DNA of 64,000 nucleotides, taken from contig CAJXCD010000006.1 in assembly GCA_913051545.1 (NCBI GenBank), forward strand, positions 3,680 to 67,679. Direction: 5' to 3'. A program made the position numbers and the translations under genes. Numbering within the stretch: the stretch's first letter is position 1; every line of letters begins with the position of its first letter. This DNA is from an uncultured Chloroflexota bacterium (GTDB taxonomy: Bacteria > Chloroflexota > Dehalococcoidia > Lucifugimonadales > CAJXCD01). Shown piece after piece: positions 10,461 through 52,754 of the stretch. Under the pieces are notes generated by a model, which saw nothing but the letters and a program-made list of their open reading frames with translations, ran no database searches and was not told the origin of the DNA.

Positions 10461-10461
10461 T

Positions 10462-20626: not shown

Positions 20627-20654
20627 GTATGTTTTAGAATTAGCGATTAACTAG

Positions 20655-23048: not shown

Positions 23049-23774
23049 TTAAGTTTGGCTAGTTTGATATAGAAGCATTTCTACAAGGCTAATATCGTTT
23101 TCGTTATCGATGTTCACAGATCTAGTACTTGGCATGATATATGGTCTTATGAAATCTCCGAACAGGCTGTCATTATTCATTATGACGTTCCGTTTAGTGA
23201 TATAAATCGCTCCGTTTCGTAAGTATGCTTTTGGCCTGAGGTCCTGTCGTCGACCTTCCCATTTTTGTGTCGGCTCACCAAGGTATGGTAAAAGTCTGCC
23301 TTTAGCTATTCGCTTTACAAGTCTTGGATGATGAGATGGTATTTCTTCAACACTTATGATTGAGTCACAATTAATATCACTTGTTAGTTTCAGTGCCTGT
23401 ATTATGTCCTCTTTGTTACGTAGAGGTGTAGTCGGTTGAAGCAATAGTACCCAGTCTATTTGAGTTCCGTCCTGATTTTCCACGAAAGAAACAGCATGCT
23501 GTACTAGCGGTAGGGTAGGGGCTTCGTCAGAGGCTAAGCTTATTGGCCTTCGGAAAGGAACTTCAGCACCTAATTTAACCGATACATCTGCAATTTCTTC
23601 GTCATCTGTACTTACTATTATTCGGTAGATATAATCTGAAAGTTCTAGTGCAGGTTCAATAGTATATGCAATTAGAGGCTTACCACAAACATTACGCAGA
23701 TTTTTTCTAGGAACACCTTTTGATCCTCCACGCGCAGGAATAATTGCTAATACTTTCTGATTATTTTTTCCCAT
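23049..23774 (-). CDS. acylneuraminate (CMP-nonulosonate) cytidylyltransferase, NeuA family
   Basis: 241 aa. Contains 'LAIIPARGGSKGVPRKNLRNVCGKPLIAYTI'. Confidence 0.9.
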   Translation of the reverse strand: MGKNNQKVLAIIPARGGSKGVPRKNLRNVCGKPLIAYTIEPALELSDYIYRIIVSTDDEEIADVSVKLGAEVPFRRPISLASDEAPTLPLVQHAVSFVENQDGTQIDWVLLLQPTTPLRNKEDIIQALKLTSDINCDSIISVEEIPSHHPRLVKRIAKGRLLPYLGEPTQKWEGRRQDLRPKAYLRNGAIYITKRNVIMNNDSLFGDFIRPYIMPSTRSVNIDNENDISLVEMLLYQTSQT

Positions 23775-24926
23775 TCAGTATGTTATACGTTTTTCTATGG
23801 TTAAAGGGATAGTTGCCAACAAGTCAGCGATGTGCTGTCCGGCATTCCCTTCGCCGTATAGGTTGCTCGACGGTAAACTGTTTTTGTTTATTTGATTTCG
23901 TGTCGCGGATACTATTGACTTTTTGTTATACGTAGCATCTGTCAAATTTGGACCTCTGTCTCTGCCAGTTTGCCGACTTCCTATATTTACCACAGGTAAG
24001 CCTAGGAAGGAACACTCTCTCACTCCCGCACTGGAGTTTCCGATAAGACACATGGAATTGACTAAAGTTCGGAGAAAATCTTCAGGGGTCATATTTTTGA
24101 AAAAATATACAAAAGGGATTTCATTAGTTTCCCTAAACTGCCGAATCCCTTTAGAAATTAAATCTGACCCTGCATCGACATTTGGCCAGAACCAGAGAGT
24201 AGGTAATGCCAATTCTTTGACAGCATTTAATGTGGCTCTGATCTGTGTTAGCGAGTCCTCGTATTCAGTGGTTACAGGATGTTGTAAGACTATGATGTAC
24301 CCTGAGGCGAGATCAACTATATTACCGACGCCGCCATACCTGGAAAATATATCGAATTGGGGTTTAGATTCGATACTTATTCGTTTGGCGAGGTCTATTG
24401 AAGGACACCCTGTGACAAAAATTCTGTCAGGGATTTCACCCATTTGTTTGACTCTTTGCGCGGCAATGTCGTTTGCCACAAAATGAACATCAGAGAGCTT
24501 TGTTACTGCGTGTCTAACTTTTTCATCAATTGACCCGCTAACTTCACCACCTTGTATGTGTGCGACTGGTATATTCATGTATGAAGCTGCTATAGCAGTG
24601 GCTATCGTTTCATATCTGTCTGCTACACTTACTACTACATCAGGCTTCAATTTATCGAATGTGGTGGCGAGCTCTGTAACAGCTATTCCGGTTGACTTGG
24701 CCGCTGCTACAGGATTTTCTCCTTCGAGCACGACGTATACCTCAGCATCGGGATCAAATCCGTCAGATTTAATCACGTCTATTACAGGTCCGTAACGTTC
24801 TAGTAGGGCTGATGCTCCAACCACAAATTGCAGAATTAACTCGTCGTGGTCTCGCACCGCTTCCAGTAGGGTTTTAATCCTAGCATAGCTAGGGCGTGCA
24901 GTTACGACGACACATACTTTACGCAT
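23775..24926 (-). CDS. neuC: UDP-N-acetylglucosamine 2-epimerase, hydrolysing (NeuC/LegG type)
   Basis: 383 aa. 'IPVAHIQGGEVSGSIDEKVRHAVTKLSDVHFV' matches the hydrolysing subclass rather than the WecB type. It directly abuts the NeuA gene. Confidence 0.85.
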   Translation of the reverse strand: MRKVCVVVTARPSYARIKTLLEAVRDHDELILQFVVGASALLERYGPVIDVIKSDGFDPDAEVYVVLEGENPVAAAKSTGIAVTELATTFDKLKPDVVVSVADRYETIATAIAASYMNIPVAHIQGGEVSGSIDEKVRHAVTKLSDVHFVANDIAAQRVKQMGEIPDRIFVTGCPSIDLAKRISIESKPQFDIFSRYGGVGNIVDLASGYIIVLQHPVTTEYEDSLTQIRATLNAVKELALPTLWFWPNVDAGSDLISKGIRQFRETNEIPFVYFFKNMTPEDFLRTLVNSMCLIGNSSAGVRECSFLGLPVVNIGSRQTGRDRGPNLTDATYNKKSIVSATRNQINKNSLPSSNLYGEGNAGQHIADLLATIPLTIEKRITY

Positions 24927-24943
24927 TGTTCAGTATCGATCCC

Positions 24944-25912
24944 TTAATTATTTTTTATCTCCGACAGATATTTACCTAATTTTTTGGCCATGAATAATTC
25001 TGTCTTAGCCATAGACTCATGCGTCGCCCCTGCTATGTGCGGTGTGATTATCAGGTTTTCATACTTTCTTGCATACTCCAATAAAGGATTTATATTTAAT
25101 TTAGTAATTAAGCGTTCATCGGATAATACATCTAAAGCTGCACCAGACAATTTGCCAGATTCTAAAGCAGAAAGCAGGGCTTGTTCGTCAATTAGTTGAC
25201 CACGGGAAGTATTGATTAGCACTGATCCGTCTCTCATTTGCCCTATTTGCTTTGCCCGTATCATATTTTTGGTATCGTTATTTAGGGGTACGTGTAGGGT
25301 AACTACGTCACCATATTGTAATAGATCATCTAAACACTCAGCTCTATCTACCGAGCTGTGCCAATGAGAGTTATGAGAATCAAATGCCATCACATCCATA
25401 TTAAAAGCTAGGCCGTAATTAGCTATCTTTCTTCCAACTCTCCCTAGTCCTACTATACCTAATTTAGCACCGTCCAAATCATGGCCTTTATAATCATCTC
25501 TGTTCCACTGACCATCTTGGACTGATGTGAACGCCGACGGTATTTTGCGTTGTAGAGCAAGTATGAGAGCCCATGTATGTTCCGCTGATGCGCTGACGGT
25601 GTCCATGAACTTGGCCTCTCCCTGGAGGCTTAGTATTTGGATACCTTTACTATCAGCGTATTCCTTATCTATATGATCTAAGCCTGTAGTGGCTGAGACT
25701 ATAGCTACGAGGTTAGTAGCGGCATCGATAACATTCTTGTCAATTTCATACGACAGCCTAACAATTAATACATGGTATTTGCCAATTTGTTTCAAGAGCT
25801 GCGCACGGGTTAGTTCAAGTTCATCTACATGCCCGAATTTTTTTAACTCATCCAGAGCATTTTTTGAATAACCAATAGGTTCAATGTTAATAATGTTAAA
25901 GTTTGAATCCAT
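24944..25912 (-). CDS. D-isomer-specific 2-hydroxyacid dehydrogenase family protein
   Basis: 322 aa. Contains 'GIVGLGRVGRKIA', 'NTSRGQLIDE' and 'TPHIAG'. Confidence 0.85.
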   Translation of the reverse strand: MDSNFNIINIEPIGYSKNALDELKKFGHVDELELTRAQLLKQIGKYHVLIVRLSYEIDKNVIDAATNLVAIVSATTGLDHIDKEYADSKGIQILSLQGEAKFMDTVSASAEHTWALILALQRKIPSAFTSVQDGQWNRDDYKGHDLDGAKLGIVGLGRVGRKIANYGLAFNMDVMAFDSHNSHWHSSVDRAECLDDLLQYGDVVTLHVPLNNDTKNMIRAKQIGQMRDGSVLINTSRGQLIDEQALLSALESGKLSGAALDVLSDERLITKLNINPLLEYARKYENLIITPHIAGATHESMAKTELFMAKKLGKYLSEIKNN

Positions 25913-25939
25913 AGAATTCTCGAATACAAAAAATTAGAG

Positions 25940-26923
25940 TTAGATGCTCGGCGACGGTGGTTTGGCTAGGCTTTTTTCATTAAGTTTATGCCAAATCCAA
26001 GGATAAGTTTTTAATATGCCATCTTTAAGGGAAATTGATGGCTCCCACCCTAGCACATTACGTAATAGTGAGTTGTCGCTGTTACGCCCTCTGACTCCCT
26101 GAGGTTTCGTAGTATCATGATTCTTGGTTAGATTTTTGCCGGAGATTTGCAAAGTGTAATCAACTAATTCGTTTACAGTGACTATTTCTTCAGTACCCAG
26201 ATTAATTGGTTCTGTGTAGTCACTGCGCATTATTCTTAGCAATCCTTCAACGCAATCGTCTATGTGGCAAAAACTACGCGTCTGCTCTCCATCACCCCAC
26301 ACTTCAATTGACGAACCGTCCGTTGCTTCAGCCACCTTTCTCATTATCGCTGCAGGTGCCTTTTCTCTGCCGCCTTCGTATGTGCCTAGTGGTCCATATA
26401 TGTTGTGAAACCTAACAATACGTACATCTATCCCATGATCTTCAGAATAGTAGGATGTGAGCTGTTCTGAAAATAGTTTTTCCCATCCATATCCTTTTTC
26501 TGGATCTGCCGGGATTGCTTCGGTTTCGGTAAGTGGAGTCACATCTTCTTTCTCTTGTAAAAAAGCGGGATATACGCAAGCTGAGCTGGTGTATAAATAT
26601 TTTTTCACTCCAGATATCCGAGTGGCTTCAAGCATGTGACTATTAATTAGTACGTTATTTCGTGTGAGGATTCCATGGTTACTGGAGATATATCCTATGC
26701 CACCCATATCAGCAGCTAAATTGTAAACGTGATCTATTTCGTGGGTTACAGAACAGCATTCCGTATAATTTCGAAGGTCTGCAACTACAAATTCATCAGC
26801 ATGACTACTCTCAAACTCTGGTGCTTTTATGTCAGCTCCCCTTACCCAGTGTCCTTCAGATTTTAATCTGGACACAAGGTGGTGTCCTATGAACCCCCCT
26901 GCTCCTGTGACGAGTATTTTCAT
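25940..26923 (-). CDS. extended SDR, GDP-mannose 3,5-epimerase (GME)-like
   Basis: 327 aa. 'GAGGFIG', 'ADMGGIGYISSNH', 'YGWEK', 'RFHNIYGPLGTYEGGREKAPAA' and 'GVRGRNSDN' match long conserved stretches of GME as I recall them. Confidence 0.75.
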   Translation of the reverse strand: MKILVTGAGGFIGHHLVSRLKSEGHWVRGADIKAPEFESSHADEFVVADLRNYTECCSVTHEIDHVYNLAADMGGIGYISSNHGILTRNNVLINSHMLEATRISGVKKYLYTSSACVYPAFLQEKEDVTPLTETEAIPADPEKGYGWEKLFSEQLTSYYSEDHGIDVRIVRFHNIYGPLGTYEGGREKAPAAIMRKVAEATDGSSIEVWGDGEQTRSFCHIDDCVEGLLRIMRSDYTEPINLGTEEIVTVNELVDYTLQISGKNLTKNHDTTKPQGVRGRNSDNSLLRNVLGWEPSISLKDGILKTYPWIWHKLNEKSLAKPPSPSI

Positions 26924-26975
26924 GGCAGCCCTCTACATATGTATGTTTGTGTGAGAAGTATATTAATTTATTTTT

Positions 26976-28031
26976 CTAGTCCATTGGTGCTAAATCGGTT
27001 TCAGACAGGAACGAATCTATCGATATGTCTCGAACTAGTGTACGTCCGATAATCTTGTGTAAATTTGAAGCTGGAATACCAATTCCCGGTTTTTTAAGAG
27101 ATAAATGTTTTTCTTCTAGTAAAGTTCCAGACTTAAGGTCATTCCGCGCGACAATACTCTTTGTAAAAGTTCTACGCAATTCACTAAGTTCATTAGCTTT
27201 CAAATCTTTGTTTACTGGATGTTCTGTCACAGTTTCTATGTACCTGACTCCATCTACAAGTTGTCGGAGTTCCTGGGTTGTTATTGATGACGGTATGTCA
27301 GGACCAAAAAGATGTCTACTCAAAGTGACATGTACCTCAAGCACGTCAATTCCAATAGTAGCTGCACTTAGTCCGGCATACACTTTCCCTGAATGATCGG
27401 ATAGCCCCACGGCACAATTATACCTACTGCGGTATTCAGATATCACGTTCAACCCAATTTCTTCTGGCACACTTGGGTATGCAGAGGTGCATTGTAGAAT
27501 TGCTAAACCAACGCCACTTGCTTTTATGAGATTAACAGAAGCATCTATCTCTTCAAAAGTACTCATTCCAGTTGAAAGGATAATCGGTATCCCCGTTTCT
27601 GACATAATTTTTAGCATAGGAAGGTTGTTTGTTTCTCCAGAACCAACTTTCCATGCAGCAACTCCAACTTTTGTTAATAAGTCAACTGCTTCGATTGAAA
27701 ATGGGGTACTCATAAAGGCGATGTCACGATCCTCAGCATGGCTTTTCAGTCCGTGCCATTGATCCAGTGTAAATTCCATCCGTTTCCAATACTCATATCT
27801 AGTGTCGTCCTGTTTACTGAATTTAACGCGCCAAGGTTCTGAGGGCGTACTTTCAGCGCTTGCTATATGGGTTTGGAATTTCACAGCATCAGCACCTGCG
27901 TCAGCTATTGCGTCGATAAAAGCATGAGCTAGTCCCAGGCTACCATCATGATTTTGTCCGACTTCTCCTATAATGAAGCATGGGTTACCAATTTTGAACG
28001 GGATATTTACTGTTTGATCTTGAGTGGACAT
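26976..28031 (-). CDS. NeuB-family nonulosonic acid synthase (module 1), with C-terminal SAF-like extension
   Basis: 'PCFIIGEVGQNHDGSLGLAHAFIDAIADAGADAVKFQTH'. I prefer ATG 28031, which has GGTGA 5 nt upstream, over the listed 28055. Confidence 0.9.
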   Translation of the reverse strand: MSTQDQTVNIPFKIGNPCFIIGEVGQNHDGSLGLAHAFIDAIADAGADAVKFQTHIASAESTPSEPWRVKFSKQDDTRYEYWKRMEFTLDQWHGLKSHAEDRDIAFMSTPFSIEAVDLLTKVGVAAWKVGSGETNNLPMLKIMSETGIPIILSTGMSTFEEIDASVNLIKASGVGLAILQCTSAYPSVPEEIGLNVISEYRSRYNCAVGLSDHSGKVYAGLSAATIGIDVLEVHVTLSRHLFGPDIPSSITTQELRQLVDGVRYIETVTEHPVNKDLKANELSELRRTFTKSIVARNDLKSGTLLEEKHLSLKKPGIGIPASNLHKIIGRTLVRDISIDSFLSETDLAPMD

Positions 28032-28041
28032 ATAATCACCA

Positions 28042-28917
28042 TCAAATTTTACCAATATATTTTCTAGGGTGCATTACAGTAGCAATCGAACTGGTTATTG
28101 GTCGTAGCTTTGGTTTACGATAGCCTAGTCTCATAAGCCCCTTGCTAAGTATACGTCTGTTCAAACGTCTGTTGAGACCATTAGTAGATAATTTCCAAGT
28201 CGAATCATATATAGAGTATCCAGATGCTATTTTGCCAGAAAGTTCACGATTCCTTTTAATTTCAGGTCCATTCCATATCCAATCAGTGCCCCCTGGAACT
28301 GATTCCCACCCGTGGTTCTGGTGAAACACTTTTGATACTTCAGTGGCGTCTATAGTTGGTACTCCCTTCGACAGAGCACCGTATATTAGCCACTCATCCC
28401 AGCAACCTCTACCGATTGCGAATGGTGGTATAGATGGCCATGTACCTTTAGTGAAAGCAAAGTAATCCATACCTTGGCGCAAATCACTTTCTAAGGATTG
28501 TATTTTGTATATTTCTTTCCAGGTGGTCTGGTTACTGAAATCAAATTCAGTATCTATATTAATACCCCATGATAGGCCTACCATAAGGAAAGGTTGTTTT
28601 TTAATTGATTTCAAGGCAAGTATGAAATCTTTAGTGAGTATTATATCTGCGTTTACGTAAACAATAATGTTATTAGATGCTGAGATCTCAGCAGATTCAA
28701 ATAAAGAATTTACCAAAGGGGTTCCATGCTCATTACATAGTACGTCAGGAACATGCTTGACCCCAAAGTCTGCGGCACATTGAGATGTACCCTTATCATC
28801 ACCGATTAATATCACCTCTACATCTGGATCTAGATTTACCCAACTTGATATTGCATTTCGTTGGATAACTTCGAATTTGTTTACGAAAGGCCTAGGAGTA
28901 GTAAATATAGTGATCAT
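28042..28917 (-). CDS. putative GT-A-like glycosyltransferase of an uncharacterised family
   Basis: 'MITIFTTPRPF..IQRNAISSW ... VILIGDDKG ... YVNADIILTKDF'. I chose ATG 28917, which sits 1 nt after the upstream TGA, instead of the overlapping 29019 start. Confidence 0.45.
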   Translation of the reverse strand: MITIFTTPRPFVNKFEVIQRNAISSWVNLDPDVEVILIGDDKGTSQCAADFGVKHVPDVLCNEHGTPLVNSLFESAEISASNNIIVYVNADIILTKDFILALKSIKKQPFLMVGLSWGINIDTEFDFSNQTTWKEIYKIQSLESDLRQGMDYFAFTKGTWPSIPPFAIGRGCWDEWLIYGALSKGVPTIDATEVSKVFHQNHGWESVPGGTDWIWNGPEIKRNRELSGKIASGYSIYDSTWKLSTNGLNRRLNRRILSKGLMRLGYRKPKLRPITSSIATVMHPRKYIGKI

Positions 28918-28918
28918 C

Positions 28919-29629
28919 TCATAATTCTTGAGAAGGGTTTTGTGACGTTTGTAGTACGAAGCAACCAATACCATATAGGTCTCTAACGGGCTTACGAGAT
29001 AGAGCTGTTTCTTTATCAACCTTACCCCAAAGGTTGTGGTCGTCTTTGTTCCAATATTCTTCTTTCAATGTTTCCCACCCGGATAGTAATAATGGTAGTC
29101 TGTCTCGTCCGTAGACTCTATGTAGAGGTGGGAACACTGAATCTTGACCAATTGGGATGGTAAGAATCATTTTGCCAGTTGGTTTGATAAGTTTTAGCAG
29201 TAGTTTCATTACCTGGAAGTCACCTTCTTCATTTGAAGTATTAACACCGTAACGCCCTACTAAACCAACATGTTCAATCGAAGAACAGTTTATGATTAGG
29301 TCAAAGTTGTCCGGTGGTATGTTGTGGTCGAGGATGTCACCCTGTACAAATTCTATGTTGGAGTGTTTATAAAACCATTTTGGGGTTCTAAGATCGATGC
29401 CTGATATTTCATATCCACTCATGGCAGCGGATAGCCATAGATGACTATTCCCTGTTCCAAAATCTAGAGCTTTACCAGGGCCTGGTGGCATGTGCGCTGC
29501 GACCCAGGAATTTTCTATAGCTCTATCCCCAGCTAGAGTGACAGTAGGTACAGGTAATTTCCGTTCAATGTGCATTGCTAGGCCTGAAACCTTGAACAGA
29601 AATAGTCTGAAAAGTTTAACGATGAACAT
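28919..29629 (-). CDS. class I SAM-dependent methyltransferase
   Basis: 236 aa. Contains 'ALDFGTGNSHLWLSAAMSGYEISGIDL' and 'DLIINCSSIEHV'. Confidence 0.7.
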   Translation of the reverse strand: MFIVKLFRLFLFKVSGLAMHIERKLPVPTVTLAGDRAIENSWVAAHMPPGPGKALDFGTGNSHLWLSAAMSGYEISGIDLRTPKWFYKHSNIEFVQGDILDHNIPPDNFDLIINCSSIEHVGLVGRYGVNTSNEEGDFQVMKLLLKLIKPTGKMILTIPIGQDSVFPPLHRVYGRDRLPLLLSGWETLKEEYWNKDDHNLWGKVDKETALSRKPVRDLYGIGCFVLQTSQNPSQEL

Positions 29630-29699
29630 GGTTTACACTCAGTTTCTCTATTGAATTCCAGGGTCTAATTATTACACCATTTTACAATTGGATATGTAA

Positions 29700-31070: not shown

Positions 31071-31103
31071 AGAGGCTCCTTAATTTTGTGAAAGAAATAT
31101 GAA

Positions 31104-31937: not shown

Positions 31938-32001
31938 CCAATCTCCCTGTTATTTCAGATAAGCGAGCTATTTAACACGCTATATATAATACAAATATAG
32001 C

Positions 32002-33519: not shown

Positions 33520-33531
33520 TACTTTAGAGAT

Positions 33532-35594: not shown

Positions 35595-35707
35595 ATCCTC
35601 ATGCTAATTCTCCTCTACTACGCTTACTTATTATCCAACGCGTAGATAAATAATGAATTTTTCCCGACTTAGGTAACTCATCATACTTTCGCTGTCTTTT
35701 CGTTTCT

Positions 35708-37878: not shown

Positions 37879-37920
37879 CTATGACCTCGTGGCGCTAACT
37901 AAATTAAAGTTATCAATTAT

Positions 37921-38955: not shown

Positions 38956-39058
38956 CTCGAATCAATATTTTTCTTGAACCCCAAAAAAATCATTTAAATT
39001 CGTGGTGCAAAATAGTTATTTTTGGCATAATAAGAGCTATAGGCAACTTCAGGATAAG

Positions 39059-40018: not shown

Positions 40019-41244
40019 TTGGAAGCTAGCTCTCTATTAGAGATAGATACGGATTGTCTTATTACTTCGAAAAAGTCAGTGTCCAGAAAAAATGCTTTCT
40101 GAATCGAATCGGGTACTGGTTGAGATGAGTGAAGAATGGAAGAGCGCAACAATTCCAAAGAGATGTCGCTGACTTTTGACTCGCCATTAACTTGTGAATA
40201 CGGTCTTATCCAGGTAGCAAGGTCTTTTACATCCACTTCTGGTGAGTCAAACATTAGGCTTAGGGGTACTCTAGAAGTGGATGCTATGTCTGGTTGATAG
40301 CCAAATATTTCCATTTCGGGATAGCATAAATGTTCGATGAACTGTATTTCAGGACTCGTCAGCGCATTTTTCCACCTATCGATCGAATCTAGGTTGAAAG
40401 AGCGTGTAGCTTGAAAATTTTGGTAAGATGAATTCTGACTCCATTTACTTCCGGTCCCATCTACAAAAGTATTTGGATCTATCATTGATGGATCGAAGTT
40501 CATATTCAAGAAATCACAAACCTTTTTTGCTTCCATTTCCGGGTCTGAAACTAATTGCTCATATTTAAGTAATAGAACTCTGTCAGATGTGTTTGGGGAT
40601 TTATACACGCTTTGCCACGCTAGTGTGGCTAATTTTCTCCATTGCCGAATTAGAAATAACCATGGATATTTTTCTTGTACACTTTGTTGACTGTTCTTTG
40701 AAGCGCAGATTGCTCGTGGGTCTCTCATTACGTGGATAACCTTTGCTTCCGGGAAACTTTCAAGAATGTGATTGGCGAATTCTCCAGCCCATGTAACTTT
40801 GAAGCCAACAGTGTGTGAGGTGGTCTGTCCATAGGCTTTTTGAACAATATCGAATCCGGAATCTATCAATTCCACGTAGTTGCAGCCATTTAGCTGGTCC
40901 AAAAACGGTTCTATTTTGGGTGATATGGGACGTAAGAAATGAGCGATTCGTTTTCTGAGGTTAGGCATTTCCGACTGGTCTTTAGTTAAATCAAACGATG
41001 TTTGCTGAATGGCCTTTAGAACAGATTGTTTTTCAGGGTAGTAGTAGTAATCGTCTAAAGGGGCTTCAGGGTCGACGGTATAGCCTGGTACGAGATTAGA
41101 AGCTACGTCATTACGAAACTCTTTAAACAAGGGTATGTATGGATCCACTGCACAGCACGCTTTAGAGTGGGCCTGAAGCATTCTGGCCAAGAGGGTAGTA
41201 CCAGAACGGAACATACCAGTTATGAAGACGGGTTGATAAGTCAT
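40015..41244 (-). CDS. PAPS-dependent sulfotransferase family protein
   Basis: 409 aa. 'FITGMFRSGTTLLARML' is the 5'-PSB loop and 'VIHVMRDPRAICASK' is a 3'-PB-like motif. Confidence 0.8.
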   Translation of the reverse strand: MTYQPVFITGMFRSGTTLLARMLQAHSKACCAVDPYIPLFKEFRNDVASNLVPGYTVDPEAPLDDYYYYPEKQSVLKAIQQTSFDLTKDQSEMPNLRKRIAHFLRPISPKIEPFLDQLNGCNYVELIDSGFDIVQKAYGQTTSHTVGFKVTWAGEFANHILESFPEAKVIHVMRDPRAICASKNSQQSVQEKYPWLFLIRQWRKLATLAWQSVYKSPNTSDRVLLLKYEQLVSDPEMEAKKVCDFLNMNFDPSMIDPNTFVDGTGSKWSQNSSYQNFQATRSFNLDSIDRWKNALTSPEIQFIEHLCYPEMEIFGYQPDIASTSRVPLSLMFDSPEVDVKDLATWIRPYSQVNGESKVSDISLELLRSSILHSSQPVPDSIQKAFFLDTDFFEVIRQSVSISNRELASK

Positions 41245-41349
41245 AGTCTAGGGATCTATTCCTCACATAGGTATATATGTTCTATCCAGCAGTTCAGTAC
41301 TTATATGGATAGTGAACAGAATTCATATATACTTAGAATTCGGGATTTT

Positions 41350-42417
41350 CTACTCGTTGTATCGCAGAAACATATCCCAAGATAAAGGTTCGTCATCTTC
41401 TATATCACGTATAGCAGTAGCACCTATTACTACATCCATTAGTTCTGTAGGTATTCCTGTGCCAGGTCTTTTCACTGCGATCTTTTCCTCGGTAACCAAC
41501 TCACCAGCATTTATTGGCGTAGCGGCGCATAGACTGCGTCTTCCAACGTCTTTCATTGCCTGCTCAGCAGGTGTACTAATTTTTCTTGGACTACCTAGTA
41601 CCATTTCTATGAAATCTCTTGCTTGTACGAGTGAATCGAGCTGGTCTGGAGTAAGCGAGAAGTGATGGTCAGGCCCTGGTAGGCTCTGGTCGACAGTGAT
41701 GTGTTTTTCTATCATGTTTGCCCCGATAGAAATAGCAACTTTGGACACGTCAATGCCAGGGGTGTGATCTGAGAACCCCACTGGACGTCCAAAAGCCGCC
41801 TTCATTGTCGGTATAGCTTTCAAGTTTACATCTTTAGGGTCAGTAGGGTAATTTGAGACACAATGGAGAAGAATGATTTGGTCGTTTCCTGTTTCCGTTA
41901 TTGTATTTATTGCTTTCTCAATATCACCCAGAGTCGACATTCCAGTGGACAGCACAATAGGCTTGCCTGTCTCACCCACACGCCTTATTAGTGGGAAATG
42001 GGTCATTTCGAACGATGCTATCTTGAAAACAGGAACATCAAATTCTTCCAGTATTCCTACATCTTCTATTCCAAATGGAGTCGACATAAAAGGGATCCCG
42101 ACTTCATGACAATATTCAACTACGGCTGGTTGAATTTCATACGGGAATTCTGTGGCTTGTATAAGGTCGAACATTGTTGCATCGTCGCCCACTTCCATAC
42201 GAGAACGGAAATGTTCCATCATAGGAGTTTTTTTTGAGTACATCTGCTCTGCTTCGTAGGATTGGAATTTCACAGAGTCTGCATTTGCATGAACTGCCAT
42301 GTCCACAAGTTGCTTCGCAAGATCCAATTGTTGGTTGTGATTACATCCCGCTTCAGCAATTATAAAACTAGGATTGCCGTCACCCACTACTCGCTGGCCT
42401 ATGCTAACGGTTTTCAT
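41350..42417 (-). CDS. NeuB-family synthase (module 3; PseI-like by context), with SAF-like C-terminus
   Basis: 355 aa. Contains 'PSFIIAEAGCNHNQQLDLAKQLVDMAVHANADSVKFQSY'. Confidence 0.9.
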   Translation of the reverse strand: MKTVSIGQRVVGDGNPSFIIAEAGCNHNQQLDLAKQLVDMAVHANADSVKFQSYEAEQMYSKKTPMMEHFRSRMEVGDDATMFDLIQATEFPYEIQPAVVEYCHEVGIPFMSTPFGIEDVGILEEFDVPVFKIASFEMTHFPLIRRVGETGKPIVLSTGMSTLGDIEKAINTITETGNDQIILLHCVSNYPTDPKDVNLKAIPTMKAAFGRPVGFSDHTPGIDVSKVAISIGANMIEKHITVDQSLPGPDHHFSLTPDQLDSLVQARDFIEMVLGSPRKISTPAEQAMKDVGRRSLCAATPINAGELVTEEKIAVKRPGTGIPTELMDVVIGATAIRDIEDDEPLSWDMFLRYNE

Positions 42418-42437
42418 TATATCCTCCTTGAAATTTG

Positions 42438-43175
42438 TTAGGATTGTAAATCATCCCAAGCCTGAATTAGTTCTCCCAGAGAGAACATGTCATCGTTAGT
42501 AGACAATTTTCCATACAACTTTTCCATCGTATGGAAGGACTCAGGAGTGTCTACAGAGATGTTGATATCCGGTCTATCTAATCCACTTGGTGCTTTGATA
42601 GTGCCTACTCTATATTTATCCCTATTATCATAAGCATAAAAATATATGTGCTCACGATACTTGTGGCGTGAGTCTGCACCAAGGGTGTCAGAATCAAGTC
42701 GAAGTAGACATTCTCCTGTAGAAACCTCAGCACCAGCCCCAAAAGGGTATGAGTTGTTTAGAAATGGAGAGCAGACGTCTAGCCTATCACTCTCGAGTTT
42801 TTTGATCGTGTGGCGGATAACTTCAGGGTCTATTGCCATGTTGTCAGCATTCACTCTGACTACGATGTCAGCCGAGTCATACTGCAACACTTCTATAAAA
42901 CGAGAAAGCACATCATCTTCACTGCCACGGTGAAATGCCCACGAATACTTTTCTGATAGGTCAGATAGCACGTCATTCTCCGTGTTCACAGATGTAGCGA
43001 GGTAAACTTCGTCTAATGTGTTGCATGCCTGTATTCTTCTCATAACCTGTACTATTGAAGGATATCCGTTTAATGGCAACAGGACTTTCCCTGGGAGTCT
43101 TGTAGAACCCATCCTAGCTTGCACTATTGCAATTACTCTAGCCAAAAACCTTTTTCCCAGTTCGTTGAAATTCAC
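42438..43175 (-). CDS. SpsF/PseF-type cytidylyltransferase (CTP_transf_3-like)
   Basis: 245 aa. Contains 'VIAIVQARMGSTRLPGKVLLPL'. The listed start is GTG; a downstream TTG is also possible. Confidence 0.8.
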   Translation of the reverse strand: MNFNELGKRFLARVIAIVQARMGSTRLPGKVLLPLNGYPSIVQVMRRIQACNTLDEVYLATSVNTENDVLSDLSEKYSWAFHRGSEDDVLSRFIEVLQYDSADIVVRVNADNMAIDPEVIRHTIKKLESDRLDVCSPFLNNSYPFGAGAEVSTGECLLRLDSDTLGADSRHKYREHIYFYAYDNRDKYRVGTIKAPSGLDRPDINISVDTPESFHTMEKLYGKLSTNDDMFSLGELIQAWDDLQS

Positions 43176-43177
43176 AG

Positions 43178-43918
43178 TTAGGTTCCATAGTTTACATGAC
43201 TTTCCCAGTCAGGGTTTCTTCCTTTGAGGACTGTATTCAAGGTATTTGGTCCTTCATGGAATATCAGATCTATTATAGATAGGTAAGGAGTGAATTCACG
43301 GTTTGCCACGTCATATGTGGGGTGGGTATAGTTTTGGAATACAAATGAAACATTTCGACTATGGAATTTCGACGGATCAATATATCCCTTCGATCCATTG
43401 TTAGCTAGGTAAGTTGTGGCGTCCAACCTGGCACAAATTTCAGCCAGCTTATCATCTCGTTCAAATCCAACATTCAAATCCGAGCTTAATATAAGATTGT
43501 CTGACATTCCAAGTTTTTTATATATCCATTTTATAAGAGTAAGATTTAATTCCACTAGGTAGGTCCAATGGCTTTCTAGAATTTCGGTCAATTCGTCACG
43601 GTAATGCTGAAACCAAGGTGACTGACGGTAAACGTGGTCAATAGATTTAATAATGCGTGATTGCCATGGTGTGTCGTAACTGATTTCGACTTGATTGATC
43701 TTCACTTGCTGGGACGATTTTTTGGTAGGTATACTAAGCCACATCCACCCTCGGTCTGAAGAATCTGGTATTCGATTTCTGTTGACCCATTCCCGTCGAG
43801 GAAATTGGACGTCGTCAAGCATTACATACACATCGGATCTGTGTCCCATCTCTAAGTATCCGAGCCAGGGCAGAAAATTCGGTTGGCAAATTGCAACAAT
43901 TTTCTGGGATGTTTTCAA
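43178..43918 (-). CDS. WbqC-like family protein (function unknown)
   Basis: 'IVAICQPNFLPWLGYLEM' is the typical WbqC opening. I prefer TTG 43918, which forms a TTGA overlap with the radical-SAM stop, over the listed 43984 and over ATG 43960. Confidence 0.65.
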   Translation of the reverse strand: MKTSQKIVAICQPNFLPWLGYLEMGHRSDVYVMLDDVQFPRREWVNRNRIPDSSDRGWMWLSIPTKKSSQQVKINQVEISYDTPWQSRIIKSIDHVYRQSPWFQHYRDELTEILESHWTYLVELNLTLIKWIYKKLGMSDNLILSSDLNVGFERDDKLAEICARLDATTYLANNGSKGYIDPSKFHSRNVSFVFQNYTHPTYDVANREFTPYLSIIDLIFHEGPNTLNTVLKGRNPDWESHVNYGT

Positions 43919-45516
43919 TCTCCCATACTGGCAACAACTTTTTCGTAGCCCATCTTCCATGGAGTTCCTGCCCAGTCTTTGCAACTTTTACACACTCTTT
44001 CATCCGGAATTTCGTCGTTTAGGTGTTCCATCCTGTTCATCCAGTAGTGGTGGCTGTGCCATGCATTGTGCACAGAAGTTTGATCCATAGATCTGTAAGC
44101 GGTTTTCTGCTGCCAGTCGATTGGACATGCTTTTAGAACGCCTTGATGGTTTATAACGACCCGTCGGAAGAAATGTACGCAGGGCCACCTGTGATCCCAG
44201 CCTGCAAATTCACTTTCCGAAGTTGCCACAAGTCCTACGTTCGAAATCATTTCTCGGATTAACACTTCATCTACAATGGGTGTCCAATAATTTACAAAAT
44301 CATCCAGTTCATGAATATTGGCACCTTGTTTTACGAAGCTGACCATAATTTTTGTTGATGCACCCAGTTCATCACGAATTTTTATGAATTCGTGAACACT
44401 TCCAACCACCTTGTCCCACTTTAGCCCTGTTCTAACAACCTCGAATGTTTCTGGAGTAGATGCATCAAGGGAGAAGTCTACCATGAATAACCCGGCCTCT
44501 ATGAGCTTGCGTATCCTGTCTGGTTTAAGTAGTGAGCCATTCGTTGTAAGCCCAACCGGTCCTACACCTTTTTCTTTCGCATACTTAACCATATCTACGA
44601 GCTGCTTATGTACTAGAGGTTCTCCGTCTGCAGTAATACGGACAAATTGTATTTTGTGTTCTGAGCACTCATCTATGACTTGTTTATATGTCTCCATGCT
44701 AAGGTGCCCTCGTTCTGATAGGAAATCTGGCTTTCCTCCGTTAAGGTTTGTTAGAGATTGAGGGCAATGGATACACTTGGCATTACATATATTGATGATA
44801 TCGAACATTATGTAGGTTGGGAACTCTGCACACTCTGGAGATTCAAACCCGTACGCTGCAGGCATTTTCCTTTCATCGACTCGTAGAGCTGTAACATCAG
44901 GTTGGTAAAGGGGAGCATCTTCTCCTGCTTTTTTAGCAATGGACAAGAATCCACCCAAACCCCATTTGGTCTTACCATTGCTGTTTTCAACCAGTAGACG
45001 AAGTGAAGGTGAATCCCTGCTGTCCAGAAGAGTGTCCTCATAAGGCGTTTGATGAACCATGTCGTAATGAAACTTGAATTCTGAGGGATTGGATTGGATA
45101 TGATTTATACAATCCTTCGGTGAGTTAAACACTTCCTGTTCTAATACCCTTGTGGAAATTGCTCTCACTCCAATTCCAACTGGTAGCCGGCAGTGTTCCC
45201 ATTGGGTAAAGTAGTCTATTTTTTGTGGACGGAAAGATTTCAGACCTTCGGATACGATTTGTTGGTCTAAAAAGATCTGGTTACTATCCACCAATACCAG
45301 AGAGTCTGCTTCCACTGATTCTGCAAATTGAACTAGTGCGTTGAAGTCATCAAATCGTTTTGTTTCAGCATGTGTGTGGATACTATTTGGATCCCACACC
45401 ACCGATTCAAAACATATCTCACTTAGTTTTTCCAGAAAGCGACTTTTCTCCCACAGGTGCGTAACGCTAATATCGGAGCCACTCATGTCTAGAACTAGAA
45501 GGTTTTTGTCTGTCAC
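43915..45516 (-). CDS. radical SAM protein with ~230-aa N-terminal extra domain and Cys-rich (SPASM/twitch-like) C-terminus
   Basis: 533 aa. CX3CX2C 'CNAKCIHC' lies at aa 244-251. The C-terminus reads 'CVHFF...CPIDW...CKSCKDW'. The GTG start is preceded by AGAGGTGA. Confidence 0.8.
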   Translation of the reverse strand: MTDKNLLVLDMSGSDISVTHLWEKSRFLEKLSEICFESVVWDPNSIHTHAETKRFDDFNALVQFAESVEADSLVLVDSNQIFLDQQIVSEGLKSFRPQKIDYFTQWEHCRLPVGIGVRAISTRVLEQEVFNSPKDCINHIQSNPSEFKFHYDMVHQTPYEDTLLDSRDSPSLRLLVENSNGKTKWGLGGFLSIAKKAGEDAPLYQPDVTALRVDERKMPAAYGFESPECAEFPTYIMFDIINICNAKCIHCPQSLTNLNGGKPDFLSERGHLSMETYKQVIDECSEHKIQFVRITADGEPLVHKQLVDMVKYAKEKGVGPVGLTTNGSLLKPDRIRKLIEAGLFMVDFSLDASTPETFEVVRTGLKWDKVVGSVHEFIKIRDELGASTKIMVSFVKQGANIHELDDFVNYWTPIVDEVLIREMISNVGLVATSESEFAGWDHRWPCVHFFRRVVINHQGVLKACPIDWQQKTAYRSMDQTSVHNAWHSHHYWMNRMEHLNDEIPDERVCKSCKDWAGTPWKMGYEKVVASMGD

Positions 45517-45555
45517 AAGTCACCTCTCATAATTTCCTCGTTATATTAGTGTATT

Positions 45556-46494
45556 TTACAAAGGGTCAAAATGACTGTCAGGGATTTCGCCTGATTTTGC
45601 CACTAGCATCAATCCCTCTTCTAGATTGATTTTTGGAGTATATCCTAGAGTTTCATTTGCTTTGGAAATATCTGGAATCCTCGTCCATATTTCCCTTCCT
45701 GACTTCCGAGTAGAAGCAGATAAGGGTACGAATTCAGGTTGGATACCATTTCCTAACAGCGATGTTACTTTATTCGCAAGGTCAGACATGGATATTTTAG
45801 ACTCTGGGTTCCCTATGTTGAATGTATGGTTTGAGATGTCATCGTCAAGAAGAGAAGCTATTGCTGAAACTCCATCAGCTACATAACAAAATGCCCTAAT
45901 CTGACTACCATCTCCGTACACGACGGGTGATTGTCCTCTTTGTACAGAAGCAATAAATCGTGGGATTACAAATTCAGATGTTTGACCCGGACCATACATA
46001 TTGAACAGACGAACTATATTCCAGTCAATATTGTATCTTTGGGCGTAAGCTTTGAGATATTCCTCTGCAGTGATTTTTGAAATACCATATACGGACCGAG
46101 GGTTCAGTGGAGAGTCTTCTCTTATAGGTACCATTACAGGTTCTCCGTATACCTCTGAAGATGACGCTAGAACCACTTTTTTAACCTGCTCTCTGACACA
46201 TGCCTCCAGCAAATTTATAGTTCCTTGAACATTTACATTGAGGCACTGGAGAGGTGATGATTCAGTACGTTTTACACCTAACATGGCAGCTAGATGAATT
46301 ACATAATCGCAGTCTTGGACAGAATTCATCAGGTCATTAGTGTCCAGAATACTGCCAGATATGCACTCTATGTTATTGGCATCAGCCATGTTGAGGTCTA
46401 ACGCCCGAACTTGTAAGTCAGGTCGGACTTCAGTTATATGACGAACCATGGATCTTCCGACAAATCCTGCTGCGCCTGTTATTAATACTCGCAT
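45556..46494 (-). CDS. NAD-dependent epimerase/dehydratase (extended SDR)
   Basis: 312 aa. Contains 'VLITGAAGFVG', 'ASSSEVYG' and 'YGISK'. Confidence 0.85.
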   Translation of the reverse strand: MRVLITGAAGFVGRSMVRHITEVRPDLQVRALDLNMADANNIECISGSILDTNDLMNSVQDCDYVIHLAAMLGVKRTESSPLQCLNVNVQGTINLLEACVREQVKKVVLASSSEVYGEPVMVPIREDSPLNPRSVYGISKITAEEYLKAYAQRYNIDWNIVRLFNMYGPGQTSEFVIPRFIASVQRGQSPVVYGDGSQIRAFCYVADGVSAIASLLDDDISNHTFNIGNPESKISMSDLANKVTSLLGNGIQPEFVPLSASTRKSGREIWTRIPDISKANETLGYTPKINLEEGLMLVAKSGEIPDSHFDPL

Positions 46495-46498
46495 GGGT

Positions 46499-47698
46499 TT
46501 ATATGTCCCTGTATTTATGAATATAGTGTGAAGATACTTTCTCTATGGCTTTAATGACATCTTGCACGTCTTGATCTGTCATTTGCGGGAAAATTGGAAG
46601 AGTTAACAACCTGTCATATGCGTTTTCTGCATTTGGGAAATCCCCGGGTAGGTAGCCGAAACGATGCTTGTAGTAAGAATGCATGTGGACAGGTCGGTAG
46701 TGGACATTTACACCAATATTTTCCGCCCTCATATCCTTGTATATTTCCTTGCGACCAACACTCAATGTATTCAGATTCAATAGGATTGGATAGATATGCC
46801 AGCTTGGGTTATTCTCAGGCATGACTGTTATAGGTTCAAGGATATTTGATTTTTTGAATGACTTGTCATAAGACTGAGCAATTTCGCGCCTGCGTTTGAT
46901 GGAGTCATTCACCTTTGATAGCTGACGAAATCCCAATGCAGATTGAAAGTCGGAGAGTCGGTAGTTATATCCTAAATCAGACATGTCTGAAACCCACTCG
47001 CCAGCTTTATTACGTTGTCGGCTATTTGTGGACATCCCATGGTTTCGAAATCCACGTATACGTTTTGCCCATTCGTCATTGGAAGTTACTACCATCCCGC
47101 CTTCTCCCGTAGTTATATGTTTTACGGGGTGGAAGCTGTAACAGGCCAGATGACCTATGGTACCTGCCTGTTTTCCTTTGTAGGTAGAGCCCATCGCGTG
47201 ACAAGCGTCCTCTATCACGACGAGTTTATATTCTTCAGCAAGGCTCATAACTTGATCCATTTCGCAAGGTTGCCCAGCGTAGTGCATAACTATTATCCCT
47301 TTGGTTTTCGATGTAATTTTCTTTTCTATTTCCTTGGGAGAAATACACAGTGTGTTTGGATCAACATCAGCGAATACTGGAGATGCGCCTTGATAGAGTA
47401 TGCAATTTGCTGTTGCAGCGAAAGTGAGAGGGGAAGTGATTACCTCATCTCCTGATGTAAAGCCTGCAGCAAACGAAGCTGCATGCAGAGCAGCAGTTCC
47501 GGAGCTAACTGCTATGGCATATTCTACGTTGTTCCAGGCAGCAAAACTGGACTCAAATTTTTCAACTGTTGGGCCTGTTGTTAACCAATCGCCCCTGAGG
47601 ATATTACTAACTGTTTCAATATCTGTATCGTCCAAATGTTGTCTGCCATAGGGTAGAAATTTCTTTCTGACAGGTGTCCCGCCAAGTGAGGCTAACAA
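46499..47698 (-). CDS. pseC: DegT-family aminotransferase, PseC-like
   Basis: 399 aa. Contains 'FLPYGRQHLDDTDIETVSNILRGDWLTTGPTVEKFE ... AIAVSSGTAALH'. The TTG start has GGTGA upstream. Confidence 0.8.
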   Translation of the reverse strand: MLASLGGTPVRKKFLPYGRQHLDDTDIETVSNILRGDWLTTGPTVEKFESSFAAWNNVEYAIAVSSGTAALHAASFAAGFTSGDEVITSPLTFAATANCILYQGASPVFADVDPNTLCISPKEIEKKITSKTKGIIVMHYAGQPCEMDQVMSLAEEYKLVVIEDACHAMGSTYKGKQAGTIGHLACYSFHPVKHITTGEGGMVVTSNDEWAKRIRGFRNHGMSTNSRQRNKAGEWVSDMSDLGYNYRLSDFQSALGFRQLSKVNDSIKRRREIAQSYDKSFKKSNILEPITVMPENNPSWHIYPILLNLNTLSVGRKEIYKDMRAENIGVNVHYRPVHMHSYYKHRFGYLPGDFPNAENAYDRLLTLPIFPQMTDQDVQDVIKAIEKVSSHYIHKYRDI

Positions 47699-47768
47699 AT
47701 CGTCACCACTATAGGTAAATTTGATATTTTGTGTGCGTTATGGATATCTGCCAAGGGCTGCAACATTA

Positions 47769-48545: not shown

Positions 48546-48660
48546 ATATGTTTCTAACTTTATTCATCCTGAATTTCTCTTTTGAGAGATAAATCATTGG
48601 TTCATTGTGTTCAATTTTTCAGTGATCAAGAATTGCAATTATGCAATGGTTGCAGTTGTT

Positions 48661-49590: not shown

Positions 49591-49604
49591 TATCGGTTTA
49601 ATAT

Positions 49605-50393: not shown

Positions 50394-50436
50394 TGTTTCA
50401 CGATGGACGTATATTACTGGCGATCTCTGAAGAAAT

Positions 50437-52751: not shown

Positions 52752-52754
52752 TAT

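Follow-up and report, generated by a model that had tools for sequence, protein, structure and literature searches.

Three divergent NeuB/cytidylyltransferase modules in one polysaccharide locus of an uncultured marine bacterium: sequence-based prediction of three nonulosonic acid pathways

Campylobacter jejuni carries three neuB genes, neuB1, neuB2 and neuB3, with specificities for N-acetylneuraminic (Neu5Ac), legionaminic (Leg) and pseudaminic (Pse) acid; the flagellin glycosylation island harbours two of these genes and a distant lipooligosaccharide (LOS) locus the third, the targets being LOS and flagellin. In animals, Neu5Ac is made via its 9-phosphate (Neu5Ac-9-P), with the CMP-sialic acid synthetase CMAS. 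Leptospira interrogans makes more than one nonulosonic acid and has a locus with two synthases and two synthetases (PMC3438082), while the sps operon of Bacillus subtilis makes legionaminic acid from UDP-linked sugars (PMC7439481). A route via sugar phosphates has its precedent in the synthesis of 2-keto-3-deoxynononic acid (Kdn) by Bacteroides thetaiotaomicron and Prymnesium (PMC6200933), and the BFO_1060 family of Tannerella forsythia has been genetically shown to transfer Pse/Leg derivatives (PMC5420450). Here we analyze a 64,000-nt stretch of contig CAJXCD010000006.1 (assembly GCA_913051545.1), below referred to as the window, in which three genes for NeuB-family synthases, each paired with a gene for a cytidylyltransferase (CT), all fall within 15.4 kb of one polysaccharide locus. 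With moderate confidence, based on sequence comparisons, we propose that this locus encodes three distinct pathways to CMP-activated nonulosonic acids, with transfer and export of the sugars as described below; substrates, products, transferase donors and the co-occurrence of the three sugars in one polymer are all inferred.

The six genes are intact minus-strand open reading frames (ORFs) with domains recognized by Pfam, and their positions are those given in a preliminary description of this DNA; the start at 28031 listed there for NeuB_1 is an internal ATG of the same ORF, which in full spans 26976-28055.

26976-28055, minus strand: NeuB_1, synthase with a NeuB domain (PF03102, E 1e-66) and a SAF domain
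33532-34401, minus strand: NeuB_2, synthase with a NeuB domain (PF03102, E 3e-81), without SAF
41350-42417, minus strand: NeuB_3, synthase with a NeuB domain (PF03102, E 4e-85) and a SAF domain
23049-23774, minus strand: CT_1, cytidylyltransferase (PF02348 CTP_transf_3, E 6e-20)
34401-35594, minus strand: CT_2, cytidylyltransferase (PF02348, E 8e-23) with a C-terminal HAD/KdsC-like domain
42438-43175, minus strand: CT_3, cytidylyltransferase (PF02348, E 6e-23)

The domain scores of NeuB_1, NeuB_2 and NeuB_3 (225, 273 and 286 bits for PF03102, gathering cut-off 22.1) and of CT_1, CT_2 and CT_3 (72.5, 81.9 and 82.3 bits for PF02348, gathering cut-off 22.6) correspond to E-values far below what chance would give. 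The preliminary description saw in these genes three divergent synthase/cytidylyltransferase pairs, which agrees with our comparisons: pairwise identity of the synthases is 30-35%, CT_1 and CT_2 are 33% identical, and CT_3 can be aligned to either of them over about 65 residues only. The N-terminal nucleotide-binding motif also varies, being PARGGSKG in CT_1, PARGGSKS in CT_2 and QARMGSTR in CT_3. The distinct precursor logic suggested there for each pair is recovered as well, with NeuC in module 1, a fused HAD phosphatase in module 2, and an aminotransferase plus a PseG-like hydrolase in module 3.

The tree of the synthases is a rough, non-bootstrapped neighbor-joining tree of 96 NeuB sequences. 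In this tree NeuB_1 joins NeuB of Neisseria meningitidis, NeuB_3 falls into the clade of B. subtilis SpsE, NeuB_2 lies within a tight clade of short NeuB proteins, and the solved PseI (8h2c) clusters with none of the window synthases. The best solved relatives are in line with these positions, being N. meningitidis NeuB (1xuu, 179-180 bits) for NeuB_1, the 290-aa synthase 6ncs for NeuB_2, and B. subtilis SpsE (1vli, 236 bits, compared with 176 bits for PseI 8h2c) for NeuB_3. Recent duplication of the synthases is ruled out by their low identity and separate clades. None of the three reaches the cut-off of the NeuB_NnaB model TIGR03569 (316, 269 and 364 bits for NeuB_1, NeuB_2 and NeuB_3, cut-off 399.65) or of the PseI model TIGR03586 (222, 208 and 307 bits, cut-off 340.25).

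Active-site residues were compared by aligning the three synthases with four solved homologues, in the numbering of N. meningitidis NeuB. Residues E25, K53, Q55, K129, S132, S154, Y186, S213, H215, E234, H236 and D247 are kept in all three proteins, hence the loss of metal and phosphoenolpyruvate (PEP) ligands from two of the synthases, considered in the preliminary description, is not observed, and degenerate active sites are ruled out as far as these ligands are concerned. The differences concern positions 134 and 314: NeuB_3 keeps both E134 and R314, NeuB_1 has E134 but Lys in position 314, and NeuB_2 has Cys in position 134. As the same deviations are found in homologues or orthologues, they represent traits of the families rather than decay.

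Module 1 (23049-28055) is, by its gene content, predicted to be a bacterial sialic-acid-type route via N-acetylmannosamine (ManNAc). Its gene 23775-24926 (minus strand) encodes a NeuC-type hydrolysing UDP-N-acetylglucosamine (UDP-GlcNAc) 2-epimerase, scoring 373.9 bits with TIGR03568 (cut-off 235.9) and only 68 bits with the model of the non-hydrolysing WecB. NeuB_1 is about 34% identical to N. meningitidis NeuB, and the Lys replacing R314 is also present in its 69%-identical orthologue from a syntenic locus on an 817-kb ENA contig (L086). The best solved relatives of CT_1 are CMP-Neu5Ac synthetases, 6ifd (122 bits), 9ftb and 1eyr. A dehydratase-aminotransferase-acetyltransferase trio for a legionaminic precursor is not found beside module 1. 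The accompanying genes are as follows.

24944-25912, minus strand: protein of the D-2-hydroxyacid dehydrogenase family, module 1 accessory (PF02826, E 7e-52)
25940-26923, minus strand: extended short-chain dehydrogenase/reductase (SDR), epimerase or reductase, module 1 accessory (PF01370, E 7e-50)
28042-29019, minus strand: conserved protein upstream of NeuB_1, no family match
28919-29629, minus strand: DUF268-type methyltransferase upstream of NeuB_1 (PF03269/methyltransferase)

The dehydrogenase adjoins CT_1-like genes in unrelated loci, namely L086 (16136-17170), L017 (17691-18707), L117, L121 and L135, and in L121 and L135 it does so yet there is no second NeuB. The top NCBIfam match of the SDR is a GDP-L-fucose synthase-like model (132 bits, far below the cut-off), and no counterpart of this gene exists in L086. 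The two upstream genes, 28042-29019 and 28919-29629, are conserved in position in L086, with 53% and 54% identity. The two interposed oxidoreductases and the replacement of R314 by Lys suggest a modified Neu5Ac-like product, which is not necessarily Neu5Ac itself. Directly downstream of CT_1 (19475-23009), genes for a GNAT protein, an AMP-binding ligase and a FabG-like SDR are found together with one for a small protein (102 aa) that weakly matches a phosphopantetheine site; a homologue of this small protein, resembling acyl carrier proteins, occurs in the Magnetovibrio locus L006, and these genes may supply an unusual N-acyl group.

Module 2 (33532-35594) is a two-gene cassette consisting of CT_2, a fusion of PF02348 and HAD (PF08282) domains, and the short NeuB_2 (289 aa). 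The SAF-less family to which NeuB_2 belongs comprises at least 8000 proteins of 289-296 aa from several phyla, with about 70% identity. It is characterized by the motif YK[IV]ASA[SC]LTDD, where S or C occupies the position of N. meningitidis E134 and LTDD immediately following it is invariant, and by SGHE in place of SDH. The E134 substitution (Cys in NeuB_2, S or C in the family) is common to 16 aligned homologues, and by these sequence features the short NeuB family appears to have a conserved alternative layout of the active site. Environmental NeuB proteins without SAF, as well as E134D variants, are on record (PMC8208679). Literature searches turned up no biochemical characterisation of the short NeuB/CT-HAD family.

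The HAD domain of CT_2 scores 101.6 bits with the KdsC/YrbI model TIGR01670, slightly under the cut-off of 106.95, and 83 bits with the Kdn-9-P phosphatase model NF058599, which has a cut-off of 180. Its motifs DxDG[VT]xT, containing the nucleophile, and GNDxND (motif IV) show no variation across CT_2 and 31 homologues, 32 sequences in all. Moreover, CT_2 matches the structures of vertebrate CMP-sialic acid synthetases 1qwj and 3ewi in the Protein Data Bank (PDB). The combination of a synthase with a phosphatase for sugar-acid phosphates and a CMP-transferase implies a phosphorylated route, of the Kdn or of the animal type.

A CT-HAD homologue is found in 64 of 80 metagenome loci, and in the unrelated contexts of L086, L088 and L089, as well as in most of the listed long metagenome loci, it occupies the position immediately upstream of the short NeuB. 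The long metagenome loci form a census of 21 loci of at least 15 kb centred on a short NeuB. The cassette is accompanied by no other NeuB in 20 of these 21 loci and in the Armatimonadota locus L088, and in L089 it stands beside a KpsC/KpsS-like Capsule_synth gene. The suggestion from the first three contexts that the cassette usually accompanies a second module is contradicted by the same census, where this is the case in just one locus.

Module 3 (37162-47698) is the largest one, and its genes other than NeuB_3 and CT_3 are listed below.

37162-37878, minus strand: PIG-L deacetylase (Pfam/NCBIfam)
37921-38955, minus strand: PseG/SpsG-like hydrolase (TIGR03590, 89.8 bits, under the cut-off of 153.55)
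39059-40018, minus strand: ArnA-N-like formyltransferase (Pfam/NCBIfam)
40015-41244, minus strand: sulfotransferase (Pfam/NCBIfam)
43178-43984, minus strand: WbqC-family protein (PF08889, E 5e-68)
43915-45516, minus strand: radical-SAM enzyme with a 230-aa N-terminal extension (PF04055, E 2e-16; CxxxCxxC from residue 244)
45556-46494, minus strand: extended SDR (LegB 169 bits, RmlB 162 bits, both below cut-offs)
46499-47698, minus strand: PseC/SpsC-like aminotransferase (TIGR03588, 454.3 bits, above the cut-off of 423.5)

In a BLASTP comparison with the sps locus of Bacillus velezensis (L031), module 3 shows 41% identity for SpsC, 38% for SpsE, 32% for SpsF and 26% for SpsG (E 1e-104 to 1e-20). 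In particular, CT_3 has no match to PseF and only weak matches to KdsB, while its identity to the product of the gene in the SpsF position of B. velezensis is supported by E 5e-35. SpsM, a PglF/CapD-type UDP-GlcNAc 4,6-dehydratase, and the N-acetyltransferase SpsD were not found in the module, where an RmlB/LegB-like SDR and a formyltransferase are present instead. From the canonical Pse set (PseB, C, H, G, I and F), PseC alone passes its cut-off; no PseH-type GNAT gene is adjacent, and the SDR 45556-46494 scores 63.6 bits with the PseB model, compared with a cut-off of 407.75. The motifs of this SDR, SSSEVYG and YGISK, do not decide between a dehydratase and a decarboxylase. As for the preliminary description, its PseC-like aminotransferase is borne out, while the assignment of the module to the Pse type is doubtful, given that SpsE and SpsF are the closest relatives, PseB is lacking and the PseG-like protein is below threshold. 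By sequence similarity, module 3 would fit the Sps legionaminic route of B. subtilis better than the canonical pseudaminic route, and both Leg-type and Pse-type stereochemistry are compatible with it.

The accessory genes of module 3 recur near similar synthases. A homologue of the radical-SAM enzyme (38% identity) adjoins a NeuB_3-like gene in L006, a WbqC homologue is present in L017, and homologues of the PIG-L deacetylase and the formyltransferase occur with NeuB_3-like genes in L006, L017 and L089. In the Magnetovibrio metagenome-assembled genome (MAG), homologues of the radical-SAM enzyme, formyltransferase, PIG-L deacetylase and aminotransferase surround a 50%-identical NeuB, which indicates that these genes behave as one module.

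Three further genes of the locus encode TagB-like GT-B proteins, candidate glycosyltransferases, and the export genes follow them in the list.

32002-33519, minus strand: TagB/SpsB-like GT-B protein beside module 2 (weak PF04464 and BFO_1060 matches)
35708-37162, minus strand: TIGR04396 "surface carbohydrate biosynthesis protein" (275 bits, cut-off 125)
15453-16706, minus strand: paralogue of 32002-33519 (weak C-terminal PF04464 match)
51393-52751, minus strand: Wzt, ABC transporter ATPase with Wzt_C (PF00005 and PF14524; conserved in L086)
within 51393-53615, minus strand: Wzm, ABC-2 permease (PF01061; conserved in L086)

The proteins 15453-16706 and 32002-33519 share 25.5% identity over 384 aa (BLASTP, E 6e-20), and the family of 35708-37162 is homologous to theirs according to hhalign (probability 97%, E 1e-10). 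With the BFO_1060 model, 35708-37162 scores 128 bits and 32002-33519 scores 45 bits, compared with a cut-off of 200. The AlphaFold model of 32002-33519, built from a 64-sequence alignment, has pLDDT 92.9, and its top Foldseek matches are GT-B enzymes. R319-x-H321-P322 (RxHP) is invariant in the 64 sequences of this family, as is PHP in the 35708 family. Searches of PDB sequences with profiles of the two transferase families yielded no usable match. Genes of the 32002 type stand beside the module 2 cassette in L086, L087, L067 and L059 and are found in the same locus with it in L117, L121 and L135. From these similarities, the three homologous TagB-like proteins are likely candidates for CMP-nonulosonate transferases; it is their adjacency to CMP-sugar cassettes, and this alone, that points to a CMP-nonulosonate as the donor.

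The proposed sequence of reactions is as follows. In module 1, NeuC would hydrolyse and 2-epimerise UDP-GlcNAc to ManNAc, NeuB_1 would join the product of NeuC to PEP, and CT_1 would convert the result into a CMP-sugar, while the 2-hydroxyacid dehydrogenase and the SDR probably change a stereocentre or an oxidation state. In module 2, NeuB_2 would combine PEP with a phosphorylated hexose, yielding Kdn-9-P from mannose 6-phosphate (Man-6-P) or Neu5Ac-9-P from ManNAc-6-P, the HAD domain of CT_2 would dephosphorylate the product, and the N-terminal domain of CT_2 would then add CMP. In module 3, the SDR and the PseC/SpsC-like aminotransferase would produce a nucleoside diphosphate (NDP)-linked 4-amino-4,6-dideoxy-N-acetylhexosamine, which may undergo N-formylation and perhaps also de-N-acetylation by the PIG-L enzyme; release of the sugar from the nucleotide would be the task of the PseG/SpsG-like hydrolase, and NeuB_3 with PEP, followed by CT_3, would give a formylated CMP-5,7-diamino nonulosonic acid of the Leg or Pse type. 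The three TagB-like GT-B proteins would transfer the CMP-sugars, methyl- and sulfotransferases would decorate the polymer, and Wzm/Wzt would export the finished glycan.

Three synthases, three activating enzymes and three related GT-B proteins fit three transfers, and the presence of three homologous candidate transferases makes it plausible, as a prediction from gene content, that a single glycan contains three different nonulosonic acids. The most specific version of this proposal, namely a single exported, methylated and sulfated heteropolysaccharide with a modified Neu5Ac-type sugar, a Kdn-type sugar made via its 9-phosphate and an N-formylated 5,7-diamino sugar, each with its own TagB-like transferase of a new family, is put forward tentatively, as we do not consider it the probable outcome.

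The locus as a whole extends over about 57 kb and is devoted to a cell-surface polysaccharide; its host is an uncultured marine bacterium that probably belongs to Chloroflexota. Within the window, 51 ORFs follow each other without interruption from 57149 down to 347, every one on the minus strand, with gaps mostly below 115 bp and the largest one, 560 bp, at 55051-55610. Concerning the description of this array as one operon, the co-directionality and the short gaps hold, while the operon itself is not established, the promoter and terminator scans of the locus having given signals no better than those in shuffled sequences. The tRNA scan found no genes. The marine Chloroflexota host is suggested by homologues of two genes: all named homologues of 32002-33519 come from Chloroflexota or Anaerolineae, and the single named close homologue of the flanking YyaL-like gene (64% identity) comes from a Chloroflexota bacterium.

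An assembly chimera is ruled out, since the same gene order recurs on independently assembled contigs from ENA, NCBI and JGI. Fourteen contigs carrying NeuB_3 were read, and among five displayed places (ENA Tara, NCBI and JGI assemblies) the gene has the same neighbours in four, the exception being L005, upstream of CT_3. The UDP-sugar dehydrogenase gene between modules 1 and 2 is found on six contigs with unchanged neighbours, and 30980-39167 is matched with 100% identity by a small run that is probably a single-cell genome. The exceptional contig L005 (5.6 kb, ERZ909159) has an identical NeuB_3 accompanied by a 109-aa WbqC fragment, a shorter CT_3 and another upstream gene, which points either to variation of module 3 within the population or to a break in the assembly. 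In one seawater metagenome (run X3), DNA contigs join positions 23576, 27499 or 27577 (CT_1 or NeuB_1) to 34238-34243 (NeuB_2, near the CT_2 boundary). These joints carry just 21-23 nt on one side and are probably k-mer joins or partly matching contigs of other populations, not real deletions. One metatranscriptome contains short contigs, 93-97% identical to the window, that match the module 1 SDR, NeuB_1, CT_2, NeuB_3 and the CT_3/NeuB_3 junction, which hints at transcription of all three modules in a close relative.

Besides Wzm and Wzt, the locus holds genes for a Wzy_C protein, a Wzc-like kinase, four GT4/GT1 enzymes and at least six methyltransferases. One methyltransferase gene (50437-51468) overlaps the 3' end of the Wzt gene; in other ABC-transporter systems with Wzt_C and such a methyltransferase, export is gated by a chain-terminating modification. 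Moreover, the region 5265-8080 encodes a DegT aminotransferase, a hexapeptide acetyltransferase and a GFO/IDH/MocA oxidoreductase, and UDP-sugar dehydrogenases are encoded at 29700-31070 and 53674-55050; jointly these genes resemble the WbpA/B/E/D route to 2,3-diacetamido-2,3-dideoxy-uronic acids.

The locus L086 is syntenic to that of the window, with 40-69% protein identity, and comprises modules 2 and 1 in the same order, the latter with its partner genes, as well as Wzm/Wzt and the genes of the TIGR04396 and TagB-like proteins. Synteny at this level of divergence indicates that selection keeps the two modules together. In L086, a polysaccharide pyruvyl transferase gene (5707-6957) takes exactly the place that the 13-kb block of module 3 (37162-50477) has in the window; one slot is occupied by two ways of adding acidic groups. 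Module 3 may have been added in the window or lost in L086.

To estimate how common such loci are, we used, in addition to the long metagenome loci described above, a census of 80 diverse loci from GTDB, each reaching 10 kb to either side of a central NeuB. One NeuB is found in 71 of them, two in eight and three in one; among the 21 long metagenome loci, the corresponding numbers are 20, one and zero. The survey of multi-NeuB loci proposed in the preliminary description, run here on samples, hence places three NeuB genes within about 20 kb in one of 80 genome loci and in none of the 21 long metagenome loci. The statement that loci normally carry one pathway is correct as a frequency, while L. 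interrogans, L086 and L017 are multi-module cases that go against it as a rule. L017, an uncharacterised locus from a Bacteriovorax sp. MAG (JAQTTZ010000061), has NeuB genes at 8814-9956, 9920-10987 and 14529-15617, within 7 kb, and its region 4384-18707 further holds NeuC, PseC- and PseG-like genes, WbqC, PIG-L, two cytidylyltransferases and a 2-hydroxyacid dehydrogenase. In the locus studied here, three pathways of known types, each represented by a poorly characterised variant, are stacked, which is rare.

Several observations weigh against three complete pathways with the proposed transfer and export. No synthase reaches the equivalog cut-off of NCBIfam, and CT_1, CT_2, the PseG-like protein and the SDR are below their cut-offs as well, so that specificities are extrapolated and cannot be read from the models. 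In module 1, Arg314, which contacts the N-acetyl group in NeuB of N. meningitidis, is replaced by Lys in NeuB_1, and ManNAc may therefore not be the substrate. In module 2, NeuB_2 has neither the SAF domain nor the acidic residue of position 134, and the window contains no ManNAc kinase and no mannose-phosphate enzyme, which makes the hexose-phosphate donor a guess; given the central place of Man-6-P in metabolism and the lack of a kinase, our preferred guess for the product is Kdn. Module 3 is absent from the syntenic relative and may therefore be a recent, dispensable insertion, and its SDR has the motif SSE, not TDE. For the candidate transferases, the Foldseek result for 32002-33519 is no more than a generic GT-B fold, and TagB-family enzymes classically use CDP-glycerol. 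Finally, the RNA contigs have a depth of just 2-3, come from a related population and may reflect carry-over of DNA.

An alternative for part of module 3, which we regard as unlikely, starts from the SDR. TSE is the decarboxylase motif and TDE that of RmlB; with SSSEVYG being nearer to TSE, the SDR could be a UDP-uronate decarboxylase in an Ara4FN-like side branch, where an ArnA/ArnB-like set consisting of UDP-glucose dehydrogenase (two genes of this family are present in the locus), SDR, aminotransferase and formyltransferase would lead to an N-formylated 4-amino-4-deoxy-pentose, while NeuB_3 would use another sugar. Scores of 336 bits for the aminotransferase with the ArnB model, 174 bits for the formyltransferase with the ArnA model and 103 bits for the SDR with the UDP-4-keto-pentose/UDP-xylose synthase model are consistent with such a branch. 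However, the aminotransferase passes the PseC cut-off and is far under that of ArnB (631), the SDR scores higher with LegB and RmlB, homologues of the same accessory genes cluster with the 50%-identical NeuB of the unrelated Magnetovibrio MAG, and the PseG-like hydrolase and NeuB_3 would be left with no evident supply of substrate. Even less probable, in our view, is that horizontal transfer has left behind one or two modules without a function of their own, redundant or inactive, with fewer than three sugars being made. The sub-threshold scores of all three synthases and several partners, the R314K replacement in NeuB_1, the lack of E134 and SAF in NeuB_2, and the position of module 3 as an insertion relative to L086 agree with it, but all ORFs are intact, the metal and PEP ligands are kept, transcript fragments match all three modules, and the deviations are conserved across orthologues and in a very large family, which indicates purifying selection. 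That recent duplication of a single specificity produced the three NeuB genes, or that their arrangement is a chimera of the assembly, is next to impossible; no observation in favour of it was found, and against it stand the divergence and separate clades of the synthases, the order repeated on independent contigs and the perfect match of the probable single-cell run.

A more serious competitor, possible although we would not expect it, accepts all modules as functional and assigns them to different glycoconjugates (a polymer; protein or S-layer glycosylation, a linker, a chain terminator), the locus being a composite "glycan island" in which module 2 in particular is a widely shared stand-alone cassette. 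The solitary occurrence of this cassette in nearly all long metagenome loci and in the Armatimonadota locus, as well as its position beside the Capsule_synth gene in L089, speak for such an arrangement, and so do the absence of the 13-kb module 3 block from L086 and the combination of Wzm/Wzt with the Wzy_C protein and the Wzc-like kinase, since these belong to different routes of assembly. On the other hand, the genes all run in one direction and are separated by short gaps, L086 preserves the association of modules 2 and 1, and domain scans of the window revealed no flagellin, pilin, S-layer or oligosaccharyltransferase gene. The reading we prefer remains that of three distinct pathways to CMP-activated nonulosonic acids.

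Nonulosonic acids shape the recognition of cells by phages, grazers and immune systems, and what is known about them comes mostly from pathogens, while here a lineage abundant in the ocean stacks three pathway types in one glycan locus. The locus offers three synthase/transferase sets and three candidate glycosyltransferases that can be expressed directly. For the CT-HAD and short NeuB cassette, with its large family and non-canonical active-site motif, assignment of the product would annotate thousands of genomes, and the TagB-like proteins may add to the bacterial nonulosonate transferases, of which very few are known.

The comparison with the systems mentioned at the beginning shows both shared and distinct features. 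The locus of L. interrogans (PMC3438082), like that of the window, combines multiple synthases and CMP-nonulosonate synthetases with a NeuC/LegG-type epimerase and aminotransferases, and one of its synthases has been proposed for an animal-like phosphorylated route. However, it has two modules rather than three, its phosphatase-like domain is located on the synthase, whereas the HAD domain of the window is located on the cytidylyltransferase, it does not include the formyltransferase, radical-SAM and sulfotransferase set, and its host is a pathogenic spirochaete. Of the three neuB genes of C. jejuni, one is distant from the other two, unlike those of the window with their close spacing.

Module 1 resembles the NeuC-NeuB-NeuA systems of N. 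meningitidis and Escherichia coli K1, in that its NeuC is above the cut-off, its synthase is nearest to the N. meningitidis enzyme and its transferase is nearest to solved CMP-Neu5Ac synthetases, but it differs by the 2-hydroxyacid dehydrogenase and SDR genes between neuB and neuC; NeuD, NeuS and other sialyltransferases of known families, considered in the same comparison, are not present. Module 2 shares with Kdn synthesis in B. thetaiotaomicron (BT1714 synthase and BT1713 phosphatase; PMC6200933) a NeuB-family synthase, a KdsC-like HAD phosphatase and a CMP-transferase, while its phosphatase is well below the threshold of the Kdn-9-P model and its synthase represents a distinct short family with S or C in position 134. 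The architecture of CT_2, an N-terminal transferase followed by a C-terminal HAD-like domain, is that of the vertebrate CMP-sialic acid synthetase.

Module 3 and the sps operon of B. subtilis (SpsM/C/D/G/E/F; PMC7439481) have the SpsC, SpsE, SpsF and SpsG homologues in common, and TagB/SpsB-family proteins accompany both. The differences are the RmlB/LegB-like SDR in place of the SpsM/PglF-type dehydratase, the formyltransferase in place of SpsD, and the additional radical-SAM enzyme, WbqC, PIG-L deacetylase and sulfotransferase. Finally, the transferases of T. forsythia, Tanf_01245 and TFUB4_00887 (BFO_1060; PMC5420450), resemble 35708-37162 in their TagB-like GT-B architecture and HP motif, while the window proteins are below the BFO_1060 cut-off.

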